Source: Candidatus Omnitrophota bacterium
GTDB taxonomy: Bacteria > Omnitrophota > Gorgyraeia > Gygaellales > Profunditerraquicolaceae
Assembly (NCBI GenBank): GCA_041649115.1
Contig: JBAZNT010000007.1
Location: 16,046-80,045 of the forward strand
Length of the DNA: 64,000 nucleotides
Direction: 5' to 3'
Within the stretch, counting starts at the first letter, position 1. The number at the start of each line of letters is the position of its first letter. Shown here piece after piece: positions 9,883-45,576 of the stretch. The notes under the pieces were generated by a model that ran no database searches, had not been told where the DNA came from, and saw only the letters and a list, made by a program, of their open reading frames with translations. The position numbers and the translations under genes are program-made.

Positions 9883-11039
9883 TTCCCCATCCCTATCCCT
9901 TGGCTAATCTGGAATATCTTGCCCTCTGTTTGGATAGAAGGGGCAATGATAATTTCCACGTCGTGCATTTCCTTCAGGTTTGAAGCGCCCAACGACCCCA
10001 TTGAAGTCTTCAGCGCCCCGATAAGATTTTGCGAACCGTCATCCACTCTGGCCGGGCCAAAAAGTATCTCCTTTAAAGTCCCGGTCGTGCCGACGTTGAT
10101 GCGGGTGCCGCGCGGAAGGTTCACGTGGGAAGTAGCCATCCCCCAATGATACCCTCTGCCCGGGGCCTCTTTTGCGCGGGCAAAGCTGGAGCCGATCATC
10201 ACGGCATCCGCTCCGGAGGCAAAGGCCTTGCAGATATCTCCTCCGCGGTTCATGCCTCCGTCCGTAATGATGGAGACATACCTGCCTGTCCTCTTAAAAT
10301 AAAAATCGCGCGCCCCCGCTGCGTCTACGGTAGCGGTAACCTGCGGCACGCCTATCCCCAGGACGCCGCGGGTAGTACACGCCGCCCCCGGGCCGATACC
10401 TATCAACAGCCCACTGGCCCCGGTCTTCATAAGCTCTACGGTGGTCTCGTACGTAACGCAATTGCCGATAATCACGGGGATCTTTACGGTTTTACAAAAT
10501 CTAAAGAGGTCCAGGCTCTTGTATTCCCTTGCCAGATGCCTGGTAGTGGTAACGGTAGACTGCACTACGAAGATGTCCGCTCCGGAATTGATTGCCAGCC
10601 GCGAAAACTTCTCGGCATGGGAAGGGATACAGCTTACTACTGCCGTGCCTTTTCTCTTTTTAATCTCGCTGACCCTCTTGGAAACTAATTTTTCCTTGAT
10701 GGGGGTGGTGTATAGCGATTGGATAAGTTCGGTGGCTTTCTGGGGAGTCGCCCTGGATATCTGCTCCAAGACATCATCGGGATCCTCGTAACGGGTCTGC
10801 ACACCGTCAAGGTTTAAGACCGCAATGCCTCCCAGCCTTGACATCTCTATTGCAAAACGCACATCCACTACCCCATCCATAGCCGCCGCCAGGATAGGGA
10901 CCTTAAATATTTTGCCTGCGATTTCAAAAGAAGTATCTACCTCGTTGGGGTTAACGGTCTGTGCGCCCGGCACCAAAGCTATCTCGTCAAAGCCGTAACA
11001 ACGACGCGCCCGCCTGCCTATACCTATCCATTCCGCCAT
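9879..11039 (-). CDS. IMP dehydrogenase-family protein without CBS subdomain (GuaB3-like)
   Basis: 386 aa TIM-barrel. The catalytic-loop-like [11 protein letters not shown] retains the Cys. There is no CBS pair. The stop overlaps the guaA start by 4 nt. Confidence 0.75.
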
Positions 11040-11573: not shown

Positions 11574-13367
11574 TTACCTCCTGGATACCTTTAGAACAAG
11601 GGTTATCTTGGTCCCCTTGCCGGGCCGGCTCTCCACGTATATTACCCCCCGGTGCATATGAATTATATTCCTGGTTACCGACAGCCCCAATCCTGCCCCG
11701 CCTACCGGGCCCTTGGTGGTAAAGAACGGGTCAAAGATCCTGTTGAGGTTCTCTTCGGGTATTCCGACGCCGGTATCCTCGACCTCAACTATTACCGCCG
11801 TCTCTCCAATCCTGAAATTATCATTTGTTCTTTTACCTATGCCGTTTTTTATCTCTTCTAATTTTTTATCGTAGGTGCGTATGACTACCCTGCCGCTGTC
11901 GCCAACGGCCTGAAGGGCATTCAATAATATATTGATGAAAACCTGCTCCATCTTGTTTTTGTCTACCAGGACATCAGGCAGGTCCTTCTTCGCTTCTAAC
12001 GTAATGCCCACCTTTTCGGATTTAAACCTGGTTTTTACCAAACTCAAAGATGTCTCCAGGATAGAATTTATATTTTCCGGCTCCAAGTCCAGGCCCTTGG
12101 ATTTGGAAAAATCCAGGAGCGTGTTTATAATCTTATCCGCTCTTTCCACGCTTTCCTTAATCATAACCAGAGCCTCAATAATAGCCTTTTCAGTCGCGGG
12201 AATTTTCTGCTCAAGGTAATTAACCCCCTGCAATATTATTCCTAAGGGGTTCCTGACTTCATGCGCCACCCCGCTGGCCAGTTGGCCCACAGCATTTAAT
12301 TTTTCGGCCTGGATAAGCTGGTCCTGCGTCTCCTTAAGCCTGGCGTATGATTCCTGCAGCTTCTTCTCTGCTTCCCTGCGCTCCTGCACTTCCTGAAGCA
12401 ATTCTCCCTTTTGCCTGAAAAATCTAATTATCAACCGAGAGATATCTCCAAATTCACTGGTATCCTTTTCCAAGCTGCGGAGAGCCCCTGAATCTTCCGT
12501 CTTCAGCGCCCGGGAGATAATGGCAAGCGGTATATTTACCGATGTTATCAGGACTGTTATTACAACAAACAAAACACATACAAGAAAAACGACAAATAGT
12601 ATGGCCGTATTTTTTGAGAATGACTTGAAACCTGCTATTTCCTTGGATTCTATCCTGACGTTAAGGCGGGCTACCGGTTCTGCGTTCCAGCCATTGAACT
12701 CTCTTGAAAAAAAGATAGTGCTATCTAACTTACTGCGGGAGACAGAGGGTATCTGATCTGGCTTGACGAGTTCAATCTCTCCGCCTATCAAATTAGCAAA
12801 CTCAGCGAGATATGCTCTATTCCAGAGCCGGCCCGCAAAGAAATATCCCTGGGTAGGGGTCCTCCTCTCCGCATCCGCGCTGACATGTATTGTGGCGCCG
12901 CGGACCTCCAATAACCCTAAAGGAGTATTGACAAAAAAATGGCGGAAATGCTCCTTTAAAAACATTTGATCCAGGACATCTTTGGGGAAAGAAACCCCCT
13001 TGAGGCTGGCATCGGGTTGCCGGGTTACGGAATAAAGTAAAGATGAATCCAGTTTATATACCCATATCACATCTACCTGATAGGTATCAAGGACGTTATC
13101 GCTTAGCATTTTCTTAGCCCATGCCATATCGCCGGTGCGCACAAAGGATGCCATTTCATCCCAATAAGTATAATCAAATGCCAATGCTTCAAGGTTCAGG
13201 CCTTTAAGCTCTATAATCTTGCTCAGGTAGATATTCTTCTCATCGCTGTGTTCCTTAACAAGAAACTCCACTTTCTTATTTTCGGAGAGTTGATACAAAT
13301 ACCTTCCCGCAATAAATATGGCGCTGAGCAATACCAATAATAAAATTATTTTTTTCTGGACCTTCAT
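11574..13367 (-). CDS. sensor histidine kinase with N-terminal extracytoplasmic sensor domain
   Basis: 597 aa. Two TM segments flank a sensor region of about 220 aa. H-box [10 protein letters not shown]-box and G-boxes (DTGVGIP, GAGLGL). Confidence 0.85.
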
Positions 13368-13430: not shown

Positions 13431-13459
13431 ATTGTATCACCTTCGTTTTTAATTCTCAA
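13431..13459 (-). promoter_or_regulatory. candidate promoter of the kinase/regulator operon
   Basis: The minus strand reads TTGAGA-N17-TACAAT, about 65 nt upstream of the kinase ATG. Confidence 0.4.
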
Positions 13460-13470
13460 GAGAAGCTTTC

Positions 13471-13510
13471 AAAATAAAAGGCGCAAGGTCTAATTAACCT
13501 TGCGCCTTTT
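13471..13510 (-). terminator. intrinsic terminator after groEL
   Basis: 13-bp GC-rich stem AAAAGGCGCAAGG / CCTTGCGCCTTTT. It is followed on the minus strand by TTTTATTTT. Confidence 0.8.
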
Positions 13511-13542
13511 ATTATAGCCGAAACTGCCTATATCAAGAGGTC

Positions 13543-15174
13543 TTAATACATGCCTCCCATCCCGCCGCCTCCCGGTGGCATTGGGGGCATCTTTTCTTCC
13601 TTTTCAGGCTTATCAGCAATGAGCGTCTCGGTGGTCAAAAGCAACGCTGCGATGCTGGAAGCATTCTGGAGCGCGGAACGGGTAACCTTGGTGGGGTCGA
13701 TCACGCCCGCATCAAGCATATCCACATAGGCATCCTGATTCACGTCATAACCAACGTTGGTCTTTTCCGCCTTGATACGCTGCACCACTACCGAGCCTTC
13801 CAGGCCGGCGTTTTCGGCAATCTGCCTTATAGGCTCCTCAATCGCTCTCTTGACGATATTGATGCCTATCTTTTCGTCTCCGTCAGCCTTAATCTTTTCA
13901 AGGGCCGCGATGGTACGCAACAAGGCTACCCCGCCTCCGGGGACAATGCCTTCCTGGGAAGCTGCGCGGGTAGCATGAAGCGCGTCCTCAACCCTTGCCT
14001 TCTTCTCTTTCATTTCAGTCTCGGTAGCTGCGCCGACATTGATTACCGCAACTCCTCCGGCAAGCTTTGCCAGGCGTTCCTGCAGCTTCTCTTTGTCATA
14101 ATCGGAATCGCTGTCCTCAATCTGCTTTTTAATCTGTGCGATCCTGCCGTTGATGGACTGGGTCTTGCCAGCGCCTTCAACGATAGTAGTATTCTCCTTG
14201 TCAACCTTAACCCTCTTGGCACGGCCGAGGTCCTCGACATTGATGTTTTCCAGCTTAATCCCTAAGTCTTCGGTAATTGCCTTGCCTCCGGTAAGGACTG
14301 CGATATCCTCAAGCATTGCCTTGCGCCTGTCGCCGTAACCCGGGGCCTTGACTGCGCAGGCAGCAAAGGTACCGCGTATCTTATTTACTACCAGGGTAGC
14401 CAATGCCTCGCCCTCAACCTCTTCCGCCACAATCAACAGGGGTTTGCCGGTACGCGCAATCTTCTCCAAAAGCGGGAGGATATCCTTAATAGAGGATATC
14501 TTTTTCTCGTATATCAGGATATAGGGGTCTTCAAGAAGCACCTCCATCCTTTCGGCATCGGTAACAAAATATGGGGAAAGGTACCCCTGGTCAAACTGCA
14601 TCCCCTCTACCACGTCAAGGGTAGTGGCGGTGGACTTGGCCTCTTCTACGGTAATGACTCCGTCCTTGCCGACCTTATCCATCGCCTCTGCGATAAGCTC
14701 GCCGATGGTGGTATCGGAGTTGGCGGCAATGGAAGCCACCTGCGCTACCTCTTTCTTATCCTTGATGGGAGTAGAAAGTTTTCCTAATTCCTCCACTACT
14801 TTATCTACTGCCTTCTCTATCCCCCTCTTTAGCTCCATGGGGTTTGCGCCGGCAGTAACGTTTTTCAAGCCCTCGCGATAAATCGCCTCAGCCAAAAGCG
14901 TAGCGGTGGTGGTGCCGTCGCCTGCTATATCAGAGGTCTTTTCTGCAACCTCTTTGACCATCTGGGCGCCCATATTCTCATAGGGGTCTTCCAGGTCAAT
15001 CTCCTTGGCTACCGTAACACCGTCCTTGGTAATGGTTGGCGAACCGAATTTTTTGTCGATTACGACGTTGCGGCCCTTGGGACCCAGCGTCACCTTCACC
15101 GCAGCCGAAAGCTGCTCTACGCCGCTTAAGATCTTGCGGCGTGCTTCGTCGCTATACAAAAGTTGCTTTGCCAT
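13543..15174 (-). CDS. groL: chaperonin GroEL
   Basis: 543 aa. [12 protein letters not shown]-like motif and a GGM-rich C-terminal tail. Confidence 0.97.
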
Positions 15175-15494: not shown

Positions 15495-15529
15495 AACTAC
15501 ACCTCCTTATGATTTTGGCATGATTTATA

Positions 15530-15556
15530 TTAGCACTCGCCCTACAAGAGTGCTAA
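15530..15556 (-). promoter_or_regulatory. CIRCE operator (HrcA binding site)
   Basis: Exact consensus TTAGCACTC-N9-GAGTGCTAA, 36 nt upstream of the groES ATG. Confidence 0.92.
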
Positions 15557-15583
15557 TTATAAAATAAAAAAAAATCTTGTCAA
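15556..15583 (-). promoter_or_regulatory. sigma70-type promoter of groES-groEL
   Basis: The minus strand reads TTGACA-N16-TATAAT. The -10 hexamer abuts CIRCE. Confidence 0.7.
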
Positions 15584-15643: not shown

Positions 15644-15671
15644 TTGAAATGCCAAAAAAATAGCTTAAACT
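15644..15671 (+). promoter_or_regulatory. candidate promoter of the structured leader
   Basis: TTGAAA-N16-TAAACT on the plus strand, about 25 nt upstream of motif copy 1. Confidence 0.35.
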
Positions 15672-15695
15672 TTAGGCGGAGATACTATACGCACT

Positions 15696-15756
15696 CCTTA
15701 ACGATAAAGCCGCGTCCATAGCTGTATCCGGCGCGGAATGCCACGGATCGATAAGG
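15696..15756 (+). promoter_or_regulatory. conserved leader RNA motif, copy 1 (unclassified riboswitch-like element)
   Basis: P1 is CCTTAACGAT / ATCGATAAGG. The joining segment contains ACGATAA. P2 is CCGCGTC / GGCGCGG. A 20-nt block AATGCCACGGATCGATAAGG is identical to copy 2. Confidence 0.55.
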
Positions 15757-15780
15757 AAGATTTTAGTTATCATTATCGAG

Positions 15781-15826
15781 AGCCGGGTTGCCGAATTAAG
15801 GAAAGGCAACCCGGCTATTTTATTTT
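15781..15826 (+). terminator. intrinsic terminator / attenuator after motif copy 1
   Basis: 12-bp stem AGCCGGGTTGCC / GGCAACCCGGCT followed by ATTTTATTTT. No upstream plus-strand gene exists for it to terminate. Confidence 0.75.
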
Positions 15827-15925
15827 CCGGGACAAGATAAATCAGGCAGAAAATATGCGGGCCGAAAGGAGGTGAATAAAAACGGATTCGCCCCTTCTGC
15901 AAAAAATAGATAGGGGTAAAACAAT

Positions 15926-15985
15926 CCCTGACGATAACCCGCGCCGTATGCAAAAGGCGCGAAATGCCACGGATCGATAAGGGGG
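15926..15985 (+). promoter_or_regulatory. conserved leader RNA motif, copy 2 (overlaps the ribosome-binding site)
   Basis: Same architecture as copy 1: ACGATAA, a P2 of different sequence (CGCGCC / GGCGCG), and the identical 20-nt block. Its 3' end runs into the GGGGGA Shine-Dalgarno 9 nt before the ATG at 15994. Confidence 0.55.
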
Positions 15986-15993
15986 AAAGTAAA

Positions 15994-16938
15994 ATGAAAA
16001 GGCTAAACCTGCTGCTTTTAACATTCTTTGCATGCATACTGGGTATAACAGCAACCGGTCATGCAGAAGGGGTATCGCCCCTACGCCTAGAAGTAACCAA
16101 AAGTATGCCTGTTTATAAGGCTGGGCTTCGCGCTGTTAACATGGTTAAAATAGAAACGCCGGCAACAACCAGTTCCCTTGCAACGCTTGAATCAAACACT
16201 GGCACTGCCGATAAAAATAAAAAAGACAAGGTCAACGTCGGCACTGCCGACCCTGTAACTGCCATAAAAACACAGGATAAAACCAATGGGAATATCCTTC
16301 CTGCCGGCAGTAAAGAAAAAATATATGATAAAGACGGAAATTGCATAGGATATAAAGAAAGTGTTTACACAAGAAATGACAAGGGGTTAATAACTAAAAT
16401 AAGCTGGGCAAAATATAACACCAAAGGGGAAAAAATCAGCTCCGGGACCCAGGAATATAGCTATACCTATAATAACAGGAACCAGGTCACAAAACGGGTA
16501 ATAACATGCAAGAACAGCCAAGGGAAAGTAACTGAAACTCACACCACGGAATACACCTATGGCAGTGACCACCTGGCAACGGGTTACAAAATCACGGTGC
16601 AATATGCAAGCGGAAAGAAAATTGTTTCAAATTCAGTAATCACCCGCGATGCCGCCACCCATAAAATAGACCATATCTCTACCACGGCGGTTATTACAAA
16701 AAATGGCGCAATACTCCAGAAAACAAATACCATACAAAGCTACAGTTACCATGCTAACGGAAAATTAAAGCAAATTGCCATAACAATCCGTAATGGCTCT
16801 AAGGTCGGAGGCGGGACTTTAATAGAAACAAGGACGAATAATTACGGCACGGACGGGATCCTTAAAAACGGCTCGCAGGTATTTTACAAAAACGGTAAAT
16901 TATCCGAAAAGCGCGTTATAACTTATCTTTCGAAATAA
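15994..16938 (+). CDS. secreted repeat protein (YD/MORN-like beta-hairpin repeats), function unknown
   Basis: I prefer the start at the MKRLNLLLLTFFACILG signal peptide with a good SD. The ORF track starts 30 nt earlier, inside the motif. Repeats resemble YxYxxxNQVTKRV and YKNGKL. Confidence 0.6.
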   Translation: MKRLNLLLLTFFACILGITATGHAEGVSPLRLEVTKSMPVYKAGLRAVNMVKIETPATTSSLATLESNTGTADKNKKDKVNVGTADPVTAIKTQDKTNGNILPAGSKEKIYDKDGNCIGYKESVYTRNDKGLITKISWAKYNTKGEKISSGTQEYSYTYNNRNQVTKRVITCKNSQGKVTETHTTEYTYGSDHLATGYKITVQYASGKKIVSNSVITRDAATHKIDHISTTAVITKNGAILQKTNTIQSYSYHANGKLKQIAITIRNGSKVGGGTLIETRTNNYGTDGILKNGSQVFYKNGKLSEKRVITYLSK

Positions 16939-36701: not shown

Positions 36702-36985
36702 TGGTGGACAGGAGAGGATTCGAACCTCTGAAGCACAAGTGCAGCAGATTTCAAGTGCCCTTAAGTTACCTCAAGGCTTGGACTATCTCATCACCATGGC
36801 TTCTAGCTTTAGGTGGTAGGCGCTTAGTCTCTGCACCTTCCCGTTTATATAGCGGGCTTGGCTCAGGATTGCCCTTGGGCATTTACGCCAAGGGGTTCCC
36901 TGAATTCACCTACTTTTTCATCCTGTCTTTCGACAGGATGCTGCTTTAAACAGTCTGCCCCCTTTGGCCGCTTGGGTACCTGTCC
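36702..36985 (-). tRNA. tRNA-Tyr (GTA) interrupted by a group I intron (exons 36950-36985 and 36702-36751)
   Basis: The joined exons give an 86-nt type-II tRNA: GGACAGGTACCCAAGCGGCCAAAGGGGGCAGACTGT + AAATCTGCTGCACTTGTGCTTCAGAGGTTCGAATCCTCTCCTGTCCACCA. CCA is encoded. Confidence 0.88.
36752..36949 (-). mobile_element. ORF-less group I self-splicing intron (tRNA-type, IC3-like)
   Basis: The last exon nt is U in a U-G wobble of P1 (CUGU/GCAG), and the intron ends in G. Pairings seen: P2 with GAAA loop, P3 GUAGGUG/CGCCUAC, P4 UCAGG/CCUGA, P5 CCCUUGG/CCAAGGG, P6 CCCG/CGGG, P7 GACUA/UAGUC, and P9 with GUAA loop. Confidence 0.85.
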
Positions 36986-37607
36986 ATATTGAGATTTTTG
37001 TTACGTAACCCTGAATCCAATTTTTAATTAATTTCAATAATTCCTTATCGTTGTACCTGACGTGAACCAATCCATACGGTAATATTCTATTATTTTTATT
37101 CGGAGTTCCCTCTCTTATATATGGCTTAGTAAATTGAGCAAGAGGAATGCCGGTAATCTTACGCCAATAGTTTTTTATCTCCTCTAAATCATTATACGAG
37201 TAAGCATAAATATAAAGACGCAGGCGTTCTTCTTTAATGCCGCAGATCCGCCTTAAGAACTCCAAGAATAATTTTACCATGCAAGGATTGCTGTTAACAA
37301 AATCTACGGCATTACCCTTAAGAGTTCCTTCCGCCCAATAAAGCATGATGCCGGCGGTCTTCAACTCTTCTTCGGCAACGGATAAATTCAACTTTGCATT
37401 AAAATGAGGCTTGGATTTATTCGATAAATATCCAGCTTCAGAATGATCGCGACGGTCAATACCATGTTGTTTCATAAAATCGTATAATGACCAAAAAGAG
37501 ATACCGATTTCACGGGCAACTTCTTCTATAGTATGTCTTTTGTCCCTATAGAGAAAGTTAATTCTGTCAAAATTCAACTTTTTTGGCTTTATTTGTATAG
37601 CTGTCAT
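36918..37607 (-). CDS. free-standing LAGLIDADG-like homing endonuclease with N-terminal HTH
   Basis: 229 aa. HTH segment TIEEVAREIGISFWSLYDFMKQHG. LAGLIDADG-like helix AGIMLYWAEGT, followed by a single endonuclease-fold-like region (GLVHVRYNDKELLKLI). The last 22 codons overlap the tRNA-Tyr 5' exon and intron. Confidence 0.55.
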   Translation of the reverse strand: MTAIQIKPKKLNFDRINFLYRDKRHTIEEVAREIGISFWSLYDFMKQHGIDRRDHSEAGYLSNKSKPHFNAKLNLSVAEEELKTAGIMLYWAEGTLKGNAVDFVNSNPCMVKLFLEFLRRICGIKEERLRLYIYAYSYNDLEEIKNYWRKITGIPLAQFTKPYIREGTPNKNNRILPYGLVHVRYNDKELLKLIKNWIQGYVTKISIWTGTQAAKGGRLFKAASCRKTG

Positions 37608-45460: not shown

Positions 45461-45464
45461 TACT

Positions 45465-45562
45465 TCAGGCAACGGGGAGGCAATATACGGCCTGAGAGTT
45501 CTGCTTTAAGAGCAGATGACCCGCAGAACCTGACCTGGATAATGCCAGCGTAGGGAGAGAAA
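45465..45562 (+). ncRNA. TPP (THI-box) riboswitch
   Basis: Contains GGGGAGG...CCTGAGAG...ACCCGCAGAACCTGACCTGGATAATGCCAGCGTAGGGAG, which matches the THI-box core CUGAGA / ACCUGAUCUGGAUAAUGCCAGCG. Confidence 0.9.
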
Positions 45563-45576
45563 CATCATTAACAATA

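Follow-up and report, generated by a model that had tools for sequence, protein, structure and literature searches.

Organization of the leader

The window analysed here, a 64,000-nucleotide (nt) stretch of a contig from a Candidatus Omnitrophota bacterium, contains on its plus strand a leader that lies between the divergent groES gene and a gene for a 314-residue protein, and in which an earlier note, made from the letters alone, had described two copies of an unclassified structured RNA motif. We consider it probable that this leader comprises one complete, diverged riboswitch of the GEMM-I type (the type that responds to cyclic di-guanosine monophosphate, c-di-GMP, hence c-di-GMP-I) together with one truncated paralogue of it. 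The features concerned, all on the plus strand (+), are listed below; R1 is a covariance model for which copy 1 was the sole source, L001 and L002 are related loci that carry the leader, L021 is a metagenome locus, Vc2 is a Vibrio cholerae riboswitch and MFE stands for minimum free energy.

15644..15671 (+): candidate promoter, TTGAAA, 16 nt, TAAACT, with 9/12 consensus matches
15695..15802 (+): aptamer 1 (copy 1), a GEMM-I-like three-helix junction, from the Rfam clan match, the MFE fold, the strings of L021 and model R1
15695-15703 with 15792-15802 (+): aptamer 1 P1, UCCUUAA-CG / CG-AA-UUAAGGA
15704-15709 (+): aptamer 1 J1/2, AUAAAG, in which G15709 corresponds to Vc2 G20
15710-15736 (+): aptamer 1 P2
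15737-15739 (+): aptamer 1 J2/3, AAU, in which A15737 corresponds to A47
15740-15788 (+): aptamer 1 P3, with a variable tip at 15755-15772
15789-15791 (+): aptamer 1 J3/1, UGC, in which C15791 corresponds to C92
15696..15756 (+): H1, the hairpin taken as copy 1 in the earlier note, CCUUAACGAU/AUCGAUAAGG closing P2; MFE of nascent and terminated RNA
15781..15826 (+): intrinsic terminator, a 12-base-pair (bp) stem (12/12 complementary), a 12-nt loop GAAUUAAGGAAA and a U-rich tract
15839..15879 (+): conserved spacer block with a Shine-Dalgarno (SD)-like AAAGGAGGUGA, nearly invariant in alignment A1
15912..15929 (+): anti-sequestor hairpin AGGGGU/AUCCCU, within the MFE structure of 15900-16020
15925..15984 (+): copy 2 (H2), a P3-less paralogue of aptamer 1, from model R1 and RNAalifold
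15925-15929 with 15980-15984 (+): copy 2 outer helix, UCCCU with AGGGG, the latter within the SD
15932-15935 with 15973-15976 (+): copy 2 inner helix, CGAU with AUCG
15940-15961 (+): copy 2 P2
15963-15972 (+): copy 2 unpaired AAUGCCACGG
15981-15986 (+): SD sequence GGGGGA
15994-15996 (+): start codon ATG
15994..16938 (+): regulated gene for the 314-residue protein, given the same start by gene callers in L001 and L002

The 20-mer AATGCCACGGATCGATAAGG is found at 15737-15756 and again at 15963-15982, with no third site in the window when up to three mismatches are allowed; its chance expectation is 0.02 per window, and none of 100 shuffled sequences reached two matches. The composite pattern ACGATAA-N(10-40)-GCCACGG likewise occurs exactly twice in the window, and the copies are joined by direct repeats of 27 nt (96%) and 16 nt (81%). 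P2 pairs in both copies (CCGCGUC/GGCGCGG in copy 1 and CGCGCC/GGCGCG in copy 2), while the P1 drawn in the earlier note, CCTTAACGAT/ATCGATAAGG, is paired at nine of its ten positions with a single A.A mismatch. The hairpin that these helices form is the MFE structure of the isolated 73-nt segment, and the isolated hairpins are of unremarkable stability (z = -1.3). An alternative pairing between TCGATAAGGA and TCATTATCGA is also present in the leader. We could therefore recover everything that the earlier note had pointed to, namely the repeat, the P2 pairings, the terminator, the alternative pairing and the SD, and its description of a structured, conserved cis-regulatory leader on the plus strand, with a first unit coupled to an intrinsic terminator and a second overlapping the SD, is borne out. 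The P2 that it had found to pair despite a changed sequence is a comparison of two paralogues and not phylogenetic covariation.

Both hexamers of the promoter-like site are kept in L001 and L002, and the leader transcript would begin near 15679; a promoter consensus scan found no second promoter in the spacer between the two copies. The flanks of the conserved spacer block (15827-15838 and 15880-15895) diverge in alignment A1. Its SD-like site (15865-15875) has no conserved open reading frame behind it, and is complementary to CACUCCUU (15692-15699), which lies just 5' of, and overlaps, the 5' strand of P1.

To sample the motif across genomes, the pattern ACGATAA-N(15-45)-AATGCCACGGATC was scanned over one genome for each of 185,579 species. 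Only one of the 17 loci returned was real (L012, in a Candidatus Omnitrophota metagenome-assembled genome that is the closest genome record, with a sequence identical to that of L001); the others lay in coding sequence and had no hairpin. The same pattern gave 27 loci in Joint Genome Institute (JGI) metagenomes, the real ones being L036, on the same contig, and two GEMM-I loci, L021 and L046. At this pattern the scans showed the motif in one further Omnitrophota lineage, and in no other species. There are just two independent lineages, the window with L002 (98% identical) on one side, and L001, L012 and L036, which are one and the same, on the other. They differ from each other in the P3 tip, in the spacers and by a single P2 change from G.U to G-C; the internal-loop nucleotides are kept perfectly in both copies and both lineages, and neutral stretches diverge.

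Copy 1 as a predicted GEMM-I-like three-helix junction

The motif of copy 1 is real, but it does not end at 15756, as first described; it runs to 15802, and the hairpin drawn in the earlier note is only the 5' two-thirds of a three-helix junction. An Rfam E-value scan, run on the pre-selected leader region, gave as its best match RF03167 (c-di-GMP-I-GGC, of the GEMM-I clan CL00126) at 22.9 bits and an E-value of 0.013, with the L001 equivalent reaching 25.6 bits and an E-value of 0.001; the gathering cut-offs are 59 bits for RF03167 and 35 bits for RF01051, the c-di-GMP-I family proper. The alignment spans 15700-15796, well past the motif as first drawn, and covers all three helices, with the 3' strand of P3 at 15773-15788 and GCCGAAU as J3/1 plus P1. 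The Rfam check therefore returns nothing at the gathering threshold and a sub-threshold GEMM-I clan member in the E-value scan. When 15690-15804 is folded with the 3' arm of the terminator excluded, the MFE structure is this three-way junction in both the window and L001, and all 29 of its pairs are standard. P1 extends past the Rfam model by a perfect CCUUAA/UUAAGG, and it is because the terminator loop is the 3' strand of this extended P1 that the loop is invariant between lineages.

The metagenome loci L021 and L046 pass RF01051 (49.4 bits against the cut-off of 35) and are bona fide c-di-GMP-I riboswitches. The junction strings ACGAUAAAG and AAUGCCACGGAUC are identical between them and the window, and their 3' string AGCCGGGCUGCCGA stands in the right place relative to AGCCGGGUUGCCGA of the window, so that AGCCGGG(C/U)UGCCGA, which the scan pattern did not demand, is common to all three. 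In the reverse direction, R1 finds L021 at 25.2 bits, with the pairs of P1 fully compensated. The two canonical riboswitches (L021 3148-3253 and L046 458-563) lie on unrelated metagenome contigs, where they precede a gene for a lipoprotein-like product with a signal peptide, an LTGC lipobox and then a Gly-rich stretch.

In the c-di-GMP-I fold, P1 closes the adjacent stem-loops P2 and P3, and in Vc2 the ligand is contacted at the junction by G20, A47 and C92; in addition, an interhelical Watson-Crick pair between C44 in P2 and G83 in P3 is universally conserved in this class (PMC4744006). When aligned with L021 and the Rfam models, the leader has G15709, A15737 and C15791 at the three contact positions, the mapping from Vc2 to model columns being our own, and because these positions align to G20, A47 and C92 we infer that the ligand would be c-di-GMP. 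C15734 and a bulged G15782 align to C44 and G83, but the predicted P2 is continuous and gives C15734 a partner in G15712. The claim that the motif is unclassified and may define a new riboswitch class does not survive the clan match and the shared junction strings, nor does the statement that nothing in it matches c-di-GMP-I; we file aptamer 1 as a structural variant within the known GEMM-I kind, and not as a new class.

The terminator shares its strands with the aptamer

The arms of the terminator, AGCCGGGTTGCC (15781-15792) and GGCAACCCGGCT (15805-15816), are complementary at 12/12 positions (-25.9 kcal/mol) and are followed by the U-rich ATTTTATTTT (15817-15826); the GC-rich stem with its U tract AUUUUAUUUU has the marks of an intrinsic (Rho-independent) terminator. 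A consensus terminator scanner missed it because the scanner allows loops of at most 8 nt and the loop here has 12. Neither stem nor loop varies in L001 or L002. The 5' arm is at the same time the 3' strand of aptamer P3 plus J3/1, and the loop is the 3' strand of aptamer P1.

The two folds therefore overlap strand for strand, and MFE structures computed for growing transcripts from a start at about 15679 pass from one to the other. Transcripts with ends at 15758-15780 give H1; with the end at 15790 P2 and P3 are formed, at 15804-15810 the junction is complete, and once the end reaches 15816 H1 and the terminator take its place. The hairpin of the earlier note is in this sense a predicted conformer, being the MFE structure both early in transcription (ends 15758-15780) and in RNA that has terminated. 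H1 alone amounts to -18.6 kcal/mol and H1 plus the terminator to -44.5, compared with -29.1 for the aptamer junction, so that the decision must be kinetic. In this model H1 would most plausibly be the form that the 5' part of the aptamer takes without ligand.

That the 3' strands of P1 and P3 lie inside the terminator loop and 5' arm implies ligand-dependent antitermination, and we infer from the folding model that the leader would act as an ON switch under kinetic control. The compact hairpin H1 would fold first; as 15773-15802 emerged, the RNA would become able to refold into the junction, which would take the 5' arm of the terminator as the 3' strand of its P3 and the terminator loop as the 3' strand of its P1. 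A junction held by ligand would then block the terminator and RNA polymerase would read through, and otherwise H1 and the terminator would form and release an RNA of ~147 nt. The free 3' arm of the terminator showed no notable pairing with the copy 2 region.

A truncated paralogue at the ribosome-binding site

Copy 2 is not a second sensor equivalent to the first. R1 aligns to 15922-15989 end to end (19.2 bits, E-value 3.6e-5; 20.0 bits for copy 2 of L001) with 40 model positions deleted, and these correspond to the interior of P3 and its 3' strand; in the same alignment, CGAUAAGGGG of copy 2 falls on CGAAUUAAGG, the 3' strand of P1. The H2 fold is the RNAalifold consensus of three sequences. 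Copy 2 alone gave no Rfam match when truncated hits were allowed, and no conserved 3' strand for P3 lies downstream of it in the coding sequence. Two candidates for such a hidden strand, neither recovered by RNAalifold, were rejected: CCGGUCAU at 16056-16063 (followed by GCAGAAGGGG), which reads CCAG in L001 and L002, and CUGGGUAU at 16039-16046, which offers a match of only 6-8 bp with no J3/1 or P1 after it. Where aptamer 1 has G, A and C at the contact positions, copy 2 has C (or a deletion), then A, then U; its J1/2 ends in C (or a deletion) in place of the G20 equivalent and its J3/1 has AU in place of GC. With these changes and without P3, copy 2 has no GEMM-I pocket of its own.

Copy 2 is placed where it can bear on translation. 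The G-run of the SD and the anti-sequestor hairpin compete for the same C-run (15926-15928), and the SD-sequestered and SD-free folds are isoenergetic (-18.9 vs -18.9 kcal/mol); L001 retains the C-run as well as both G-runs, in a shifted register. Since copy 2 pairs with the SD in exact balance with the upstream hairpin, the folding model makes it most likely a translational gate, which would act on the read-through mRNA; this is the weakest step in the proposed mechanism. A permuted aptamer, combining the upstream 3' half with copy 2, was rejected as the main model, being energetically poor and mismatched in P1. There is a small but appreciable chance that copy 2 is no passive hairpin but either a pseudo-aptamer that shares strands with the upstream aptamer, a single c-di-GMP sensor thereby governing termination as well as translation through strand exchange, or a minimal two-helix GEMM derivative with a ligand of its own.

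Each 20-mer also contains an ATG (AAUGCC), at 15738-15740 and 15964-15966. The second, which has AAGG 6 nt before it, shares the reading frame of the gene and lies 10 codons ahead of the annotated start; it might give rise to an N-terminally extended product, MPRIDKGESK-MKR... A peptide MPRIDK from the repeat as such was rejected, as the frame after copy 1 is not conserved and L001 has a 5-nt insertion there.

Alternative explanations

A number of findings count against the reading of the leader as a GEMM-I riboswitch with a truncated paralogue. No Rfam hit for the region reaches the gathering threshold, the scores fall far short of the 35- and 59-bit cut-offs, and across the whole window the E-value is no better than 0.54. 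The pattern that retrieved L021 came from the motif itself, which makes the identity of L021 to the window partly one of construction, and with only two independent lineages covariation statistics are impossible. Within the aptamer, the C44 equivalent C15734 is predicted to have its partner inside P2, the base of P2 reads CCGCGUCC...GGCGCGG in place of the conserved GGCAAACC...GGGACGC when aligned to L021, and the P2 loop CAUAGCUGUAUCC has no GNRA tip, one of its pairs being broken in L001. As for the mechanism, the 3' strand of P1 stops 3 nt before the 3' arm of the terminator, which makes for a very short decision window, and the strict conservation of ACGAUAA and of the unpaired 10-mer in copy 2 is left unaccounted for.

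Two alternative explanations concern the ligand. Aptamer 1 could have a GEMM-I fold and bind something else, for example another cyclic dinucleotide, with P2 and the tertiary contacts remodelled; the best Rfam model is indeed the variant RF03167 and not RF01051, the P2 hallmark and the tetraloop are absent, and the C44 equivalent is paired within P2. Against it, the G, A and C that align at the contact positions are also those of c-di-GMP binders (PMC4744006), an RF01051 member carries identical junction strings and a PilZ gene adjoins, and we regard this explanation as unlikely. We find it improbable that the compact hairpin (P1, ACGAUAA, P2 and AAUGCCACGG) is itself a new ligand-binding aptamer, used twice, for transcription and for translation, with its likeness to GEMM-I a matter of ancestry or coincidence. 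It would suit the perfect retention of the internal-loop nucleotides in both copies and two lineages, as well as the finding of the hairpin as the MFE of early and terminated transcripts and as the RNAalifold consensus for copy 2, and it is the only account offered for the conserved unpaired 10-mer there. But the terminator is an independent hairpin, so that binding to H1 could only favour, and never relieve, termination, and homology to GEMM-I already accounts for all conserved positions in copy 1, among them the 3' half and the terminator loop, on which the new-aptamer model has nothing to say. The stability of the hairpin is again no argument for it, and at the scanned pattern the motif occurs in no other species among the representative genomes and JGI metagenomes.

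Two further explanations concern the use of the strands. The copies might compete for the single 3' strand of P3 (15773-15788), or CUCCUUAACGAU of copy 1 might pair with AUCGAUAAGGGGG of copy 2, so that the state of aptamer 1 would also set translation. The strand identical between the copies is exactly the 5' strand of P3 plus an extension, the full-leader MFE structure pairs the 5' half of copy 1 with copy 2 and the SD (z = -5.2), and in that of 15770-15990 copy 2 is the partner of UUAUCGA and UCCGGG. Duplicated hairpins are, however, expected to cross-pair without any function; the permuted pairing is 13-24 kcal/mol worse than the terminator plus H2, its P1 (CCCUGA/UUAAGG) has one mismatch, or two in L001, and UCCGGG (15826-15831) is not conserved in L001, all of which leaves such competition with little probability in our view. 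The proposal in the earlier note of a protein-titrating leader or decoy small RNA, taken up here with AAGG(A/G) sites (15753, 15798, 15866 and 15979) as the targets of a CsrA-like protein and with a trans-acting RNA of ~147 nt, appears very improbable. Leaders or decoys bound by CsrA/RsmA would carry several A(N)GGA sites, in loops or at the SD. A discrete terminated RNA is predicted, and of the four purine-rich AAGG sites one falls within a hairpin loop and another is the SD, yet all four complement CCUU in the 5' strand of P1 and are explained by RNA-RNA pairing, with the loop site being the 3' strand of P1 of the aptamer; in an analysis that made no search aimed at a csrA gene, there was no other sign of a protein partner.

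Comparison with known riboswitches

With c-di-GMP-I riboswitches of RF01051 (for example V. cholerae Vc2 and Vc1), aptamer 1 shares the helix order and the three-helix junction. Its junction strings (ACGAUAAAG; AAUGCCACGGAUC; AGCCGGGyUGCCGA) are identical to those of a member that passes the cut-off, the G20, A47 and C92 equivalents are present together with a bulged AG in the 3' strand of P3, the 3' part of the aptamer overlaps an intrinsic terminator, and a secreted or surface-type protein is encoded downstream. It differs in scoring below the cut-off and in having, as P2, a plain GC helix that lacks the GGCAAACC/GGGACGC internal loop and the GNRA tetraloop, which in the family docks to a receptor in P3, the receptor being absent as well; a partner is predicted for the C44 equivalent, P3 is lengthened by a long AU-rich extension and the 3' strand of P1 lies in a terminator loop. 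RF03167, the best-scoring Rfam model, was reportedly proposed as the c-di-GMP-I-GGC variant by Weinberg et al. in 2017. It has a similar A-rich J1/2 (cgaaAAAG in the model and CGAUAAAG in the window), but where the model has G at position 47 the window aligns A (GCGAAgCc vs GGAAUGCC); this A, and scores of 22.9-25.6 bits against 59, place the window element outside the GGC variant.

Leaders with several GEMM-I units are known from the Bacillus cereus group, where c-di-GMP-I tandem riboswitches occur (PMC12452182) and where Bc1 exerts dual regulation of transcription and translation (PMC11218506). The leader studied here resembles them in having more than one GEMM-related unit, a long expression platform and control proposed at both levels. 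In the B. cereus systems, however, each unit is a complete aptamer, or one aptamer serves two terminators, whereas the second unit in the window has no P3, no J3/1 and no 3' strand for P3 of its own. With 40 model positions deleted and no Rfam hit, copy 2 is not the complete second aptamer of a tandem riboswitch.

The regulated gene and its neighbourhood

The 314-residue protein has an N-terminal signal-like segment and is disordered to about residue 105, after which beta-hairpin repeats follow. Among 5.8 billion proteins only two homologues were found, both syntenic. Pfam returned only a weak, sub-threshold MORN_2 match; AlphaFold2 modelled residues 106-310 with a predicted local distance difference test (pLDDT) score of about 87, and the best Foldseek matches in the PDB were Rhs/YD-repeat shells, at a low template modelling (TM) score. 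The protein is thus putatively secreted, and its modelled likeness to Rhs/YD proteins is weak. Inside the gene, 16103-16170 (+) is identical to L001 at 64/68 nt, in proteins that are 79% identical and with flanks that diverge freely; this stretch may reflect conservation of the protein at that point, or else a nucleic-acid signal embedded in the gene.

A gene with a PilZ domain adjoins the leader and gene, and indicates c-di-GMP signalling in the organism; a motif search showed no clear GGDEF or EAL genes in the window. In relatives one step further away (L047, interval 10343-10668, and L048, interval 10283-10388), the PilZ gene stands directly beside the groES promoter, without the leader and the gene for the 314-residue protein, and their absence from these further relatives makes leader and gene a lineage-specific cassette. 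L047 and L048 also lack a pair formed by a CHASE4 histidine kinase and a response regulator that lies between groEL and the IMPDH gene in L001, and the window carries the same CHASE4 histidine kinase in that position (11574-13367). By this comparison of gene order, riboswitch cassette and kinase pair look like lineage-specific insertions around groESL.

Upstream of groES, on the minus strand at 15529-15583 (-), are a perfect sigma-70 promoter (TTGACA, 16 nt, TATAAT) and then a CIRCE (controlling inverted repeat of chaperone expression) operator (TTAGCACTC-N9-GAGTGCTAA), both conserved in L001, L002 and L047. Between the histidine kinase gene and groEL, 13431-13553 gives sub-threshold Rfam matches on both strands (trpB motif at 34.7 bits, STnc40 and Atu_C9) and is probably a bidirectional terminator hairpin. 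Elsewhere in the window, a group I catalytic intron (RF00028, 93.6 bits) at 36759-37039 (-) adjoins a tRNA-Gly (36580-36650), with no host tRNA called around the intron by ARAGORN, and a thiamine pyrophosphate (TPP) riboswitch at 45463-45573 (+) lies just over its Rfam cut-off (57.7 vs 54.3 bits).

Implications

If our reading of the leader holds, GEMM-I-type sensors with a remodelled P2 escape the Rfam thresholds, and censuses of c-di-GMP receptors would accordingly undercount the riboswitches of Candidatus Omnitrophota, a little-studied phylum in which this would amount to a detection gap for sensors of the type. The leader may also serve as a model of switching, in that the predicted ligand-free and ligand-bound conformers are both legible in its sequence, and it presents a P3-less paralogue of an aptamer that appears to be kept under selection at a ribosome-binding site. 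Should copy 2 be coupled to the upstream sensor, the arrangement would represent a compact natural design for control at two levels. For the organism itself, which is without genetics, the leader would tie c-di-GMP to a lineage-specific, putatively secreted beta-repeat protein as a candidate effector.

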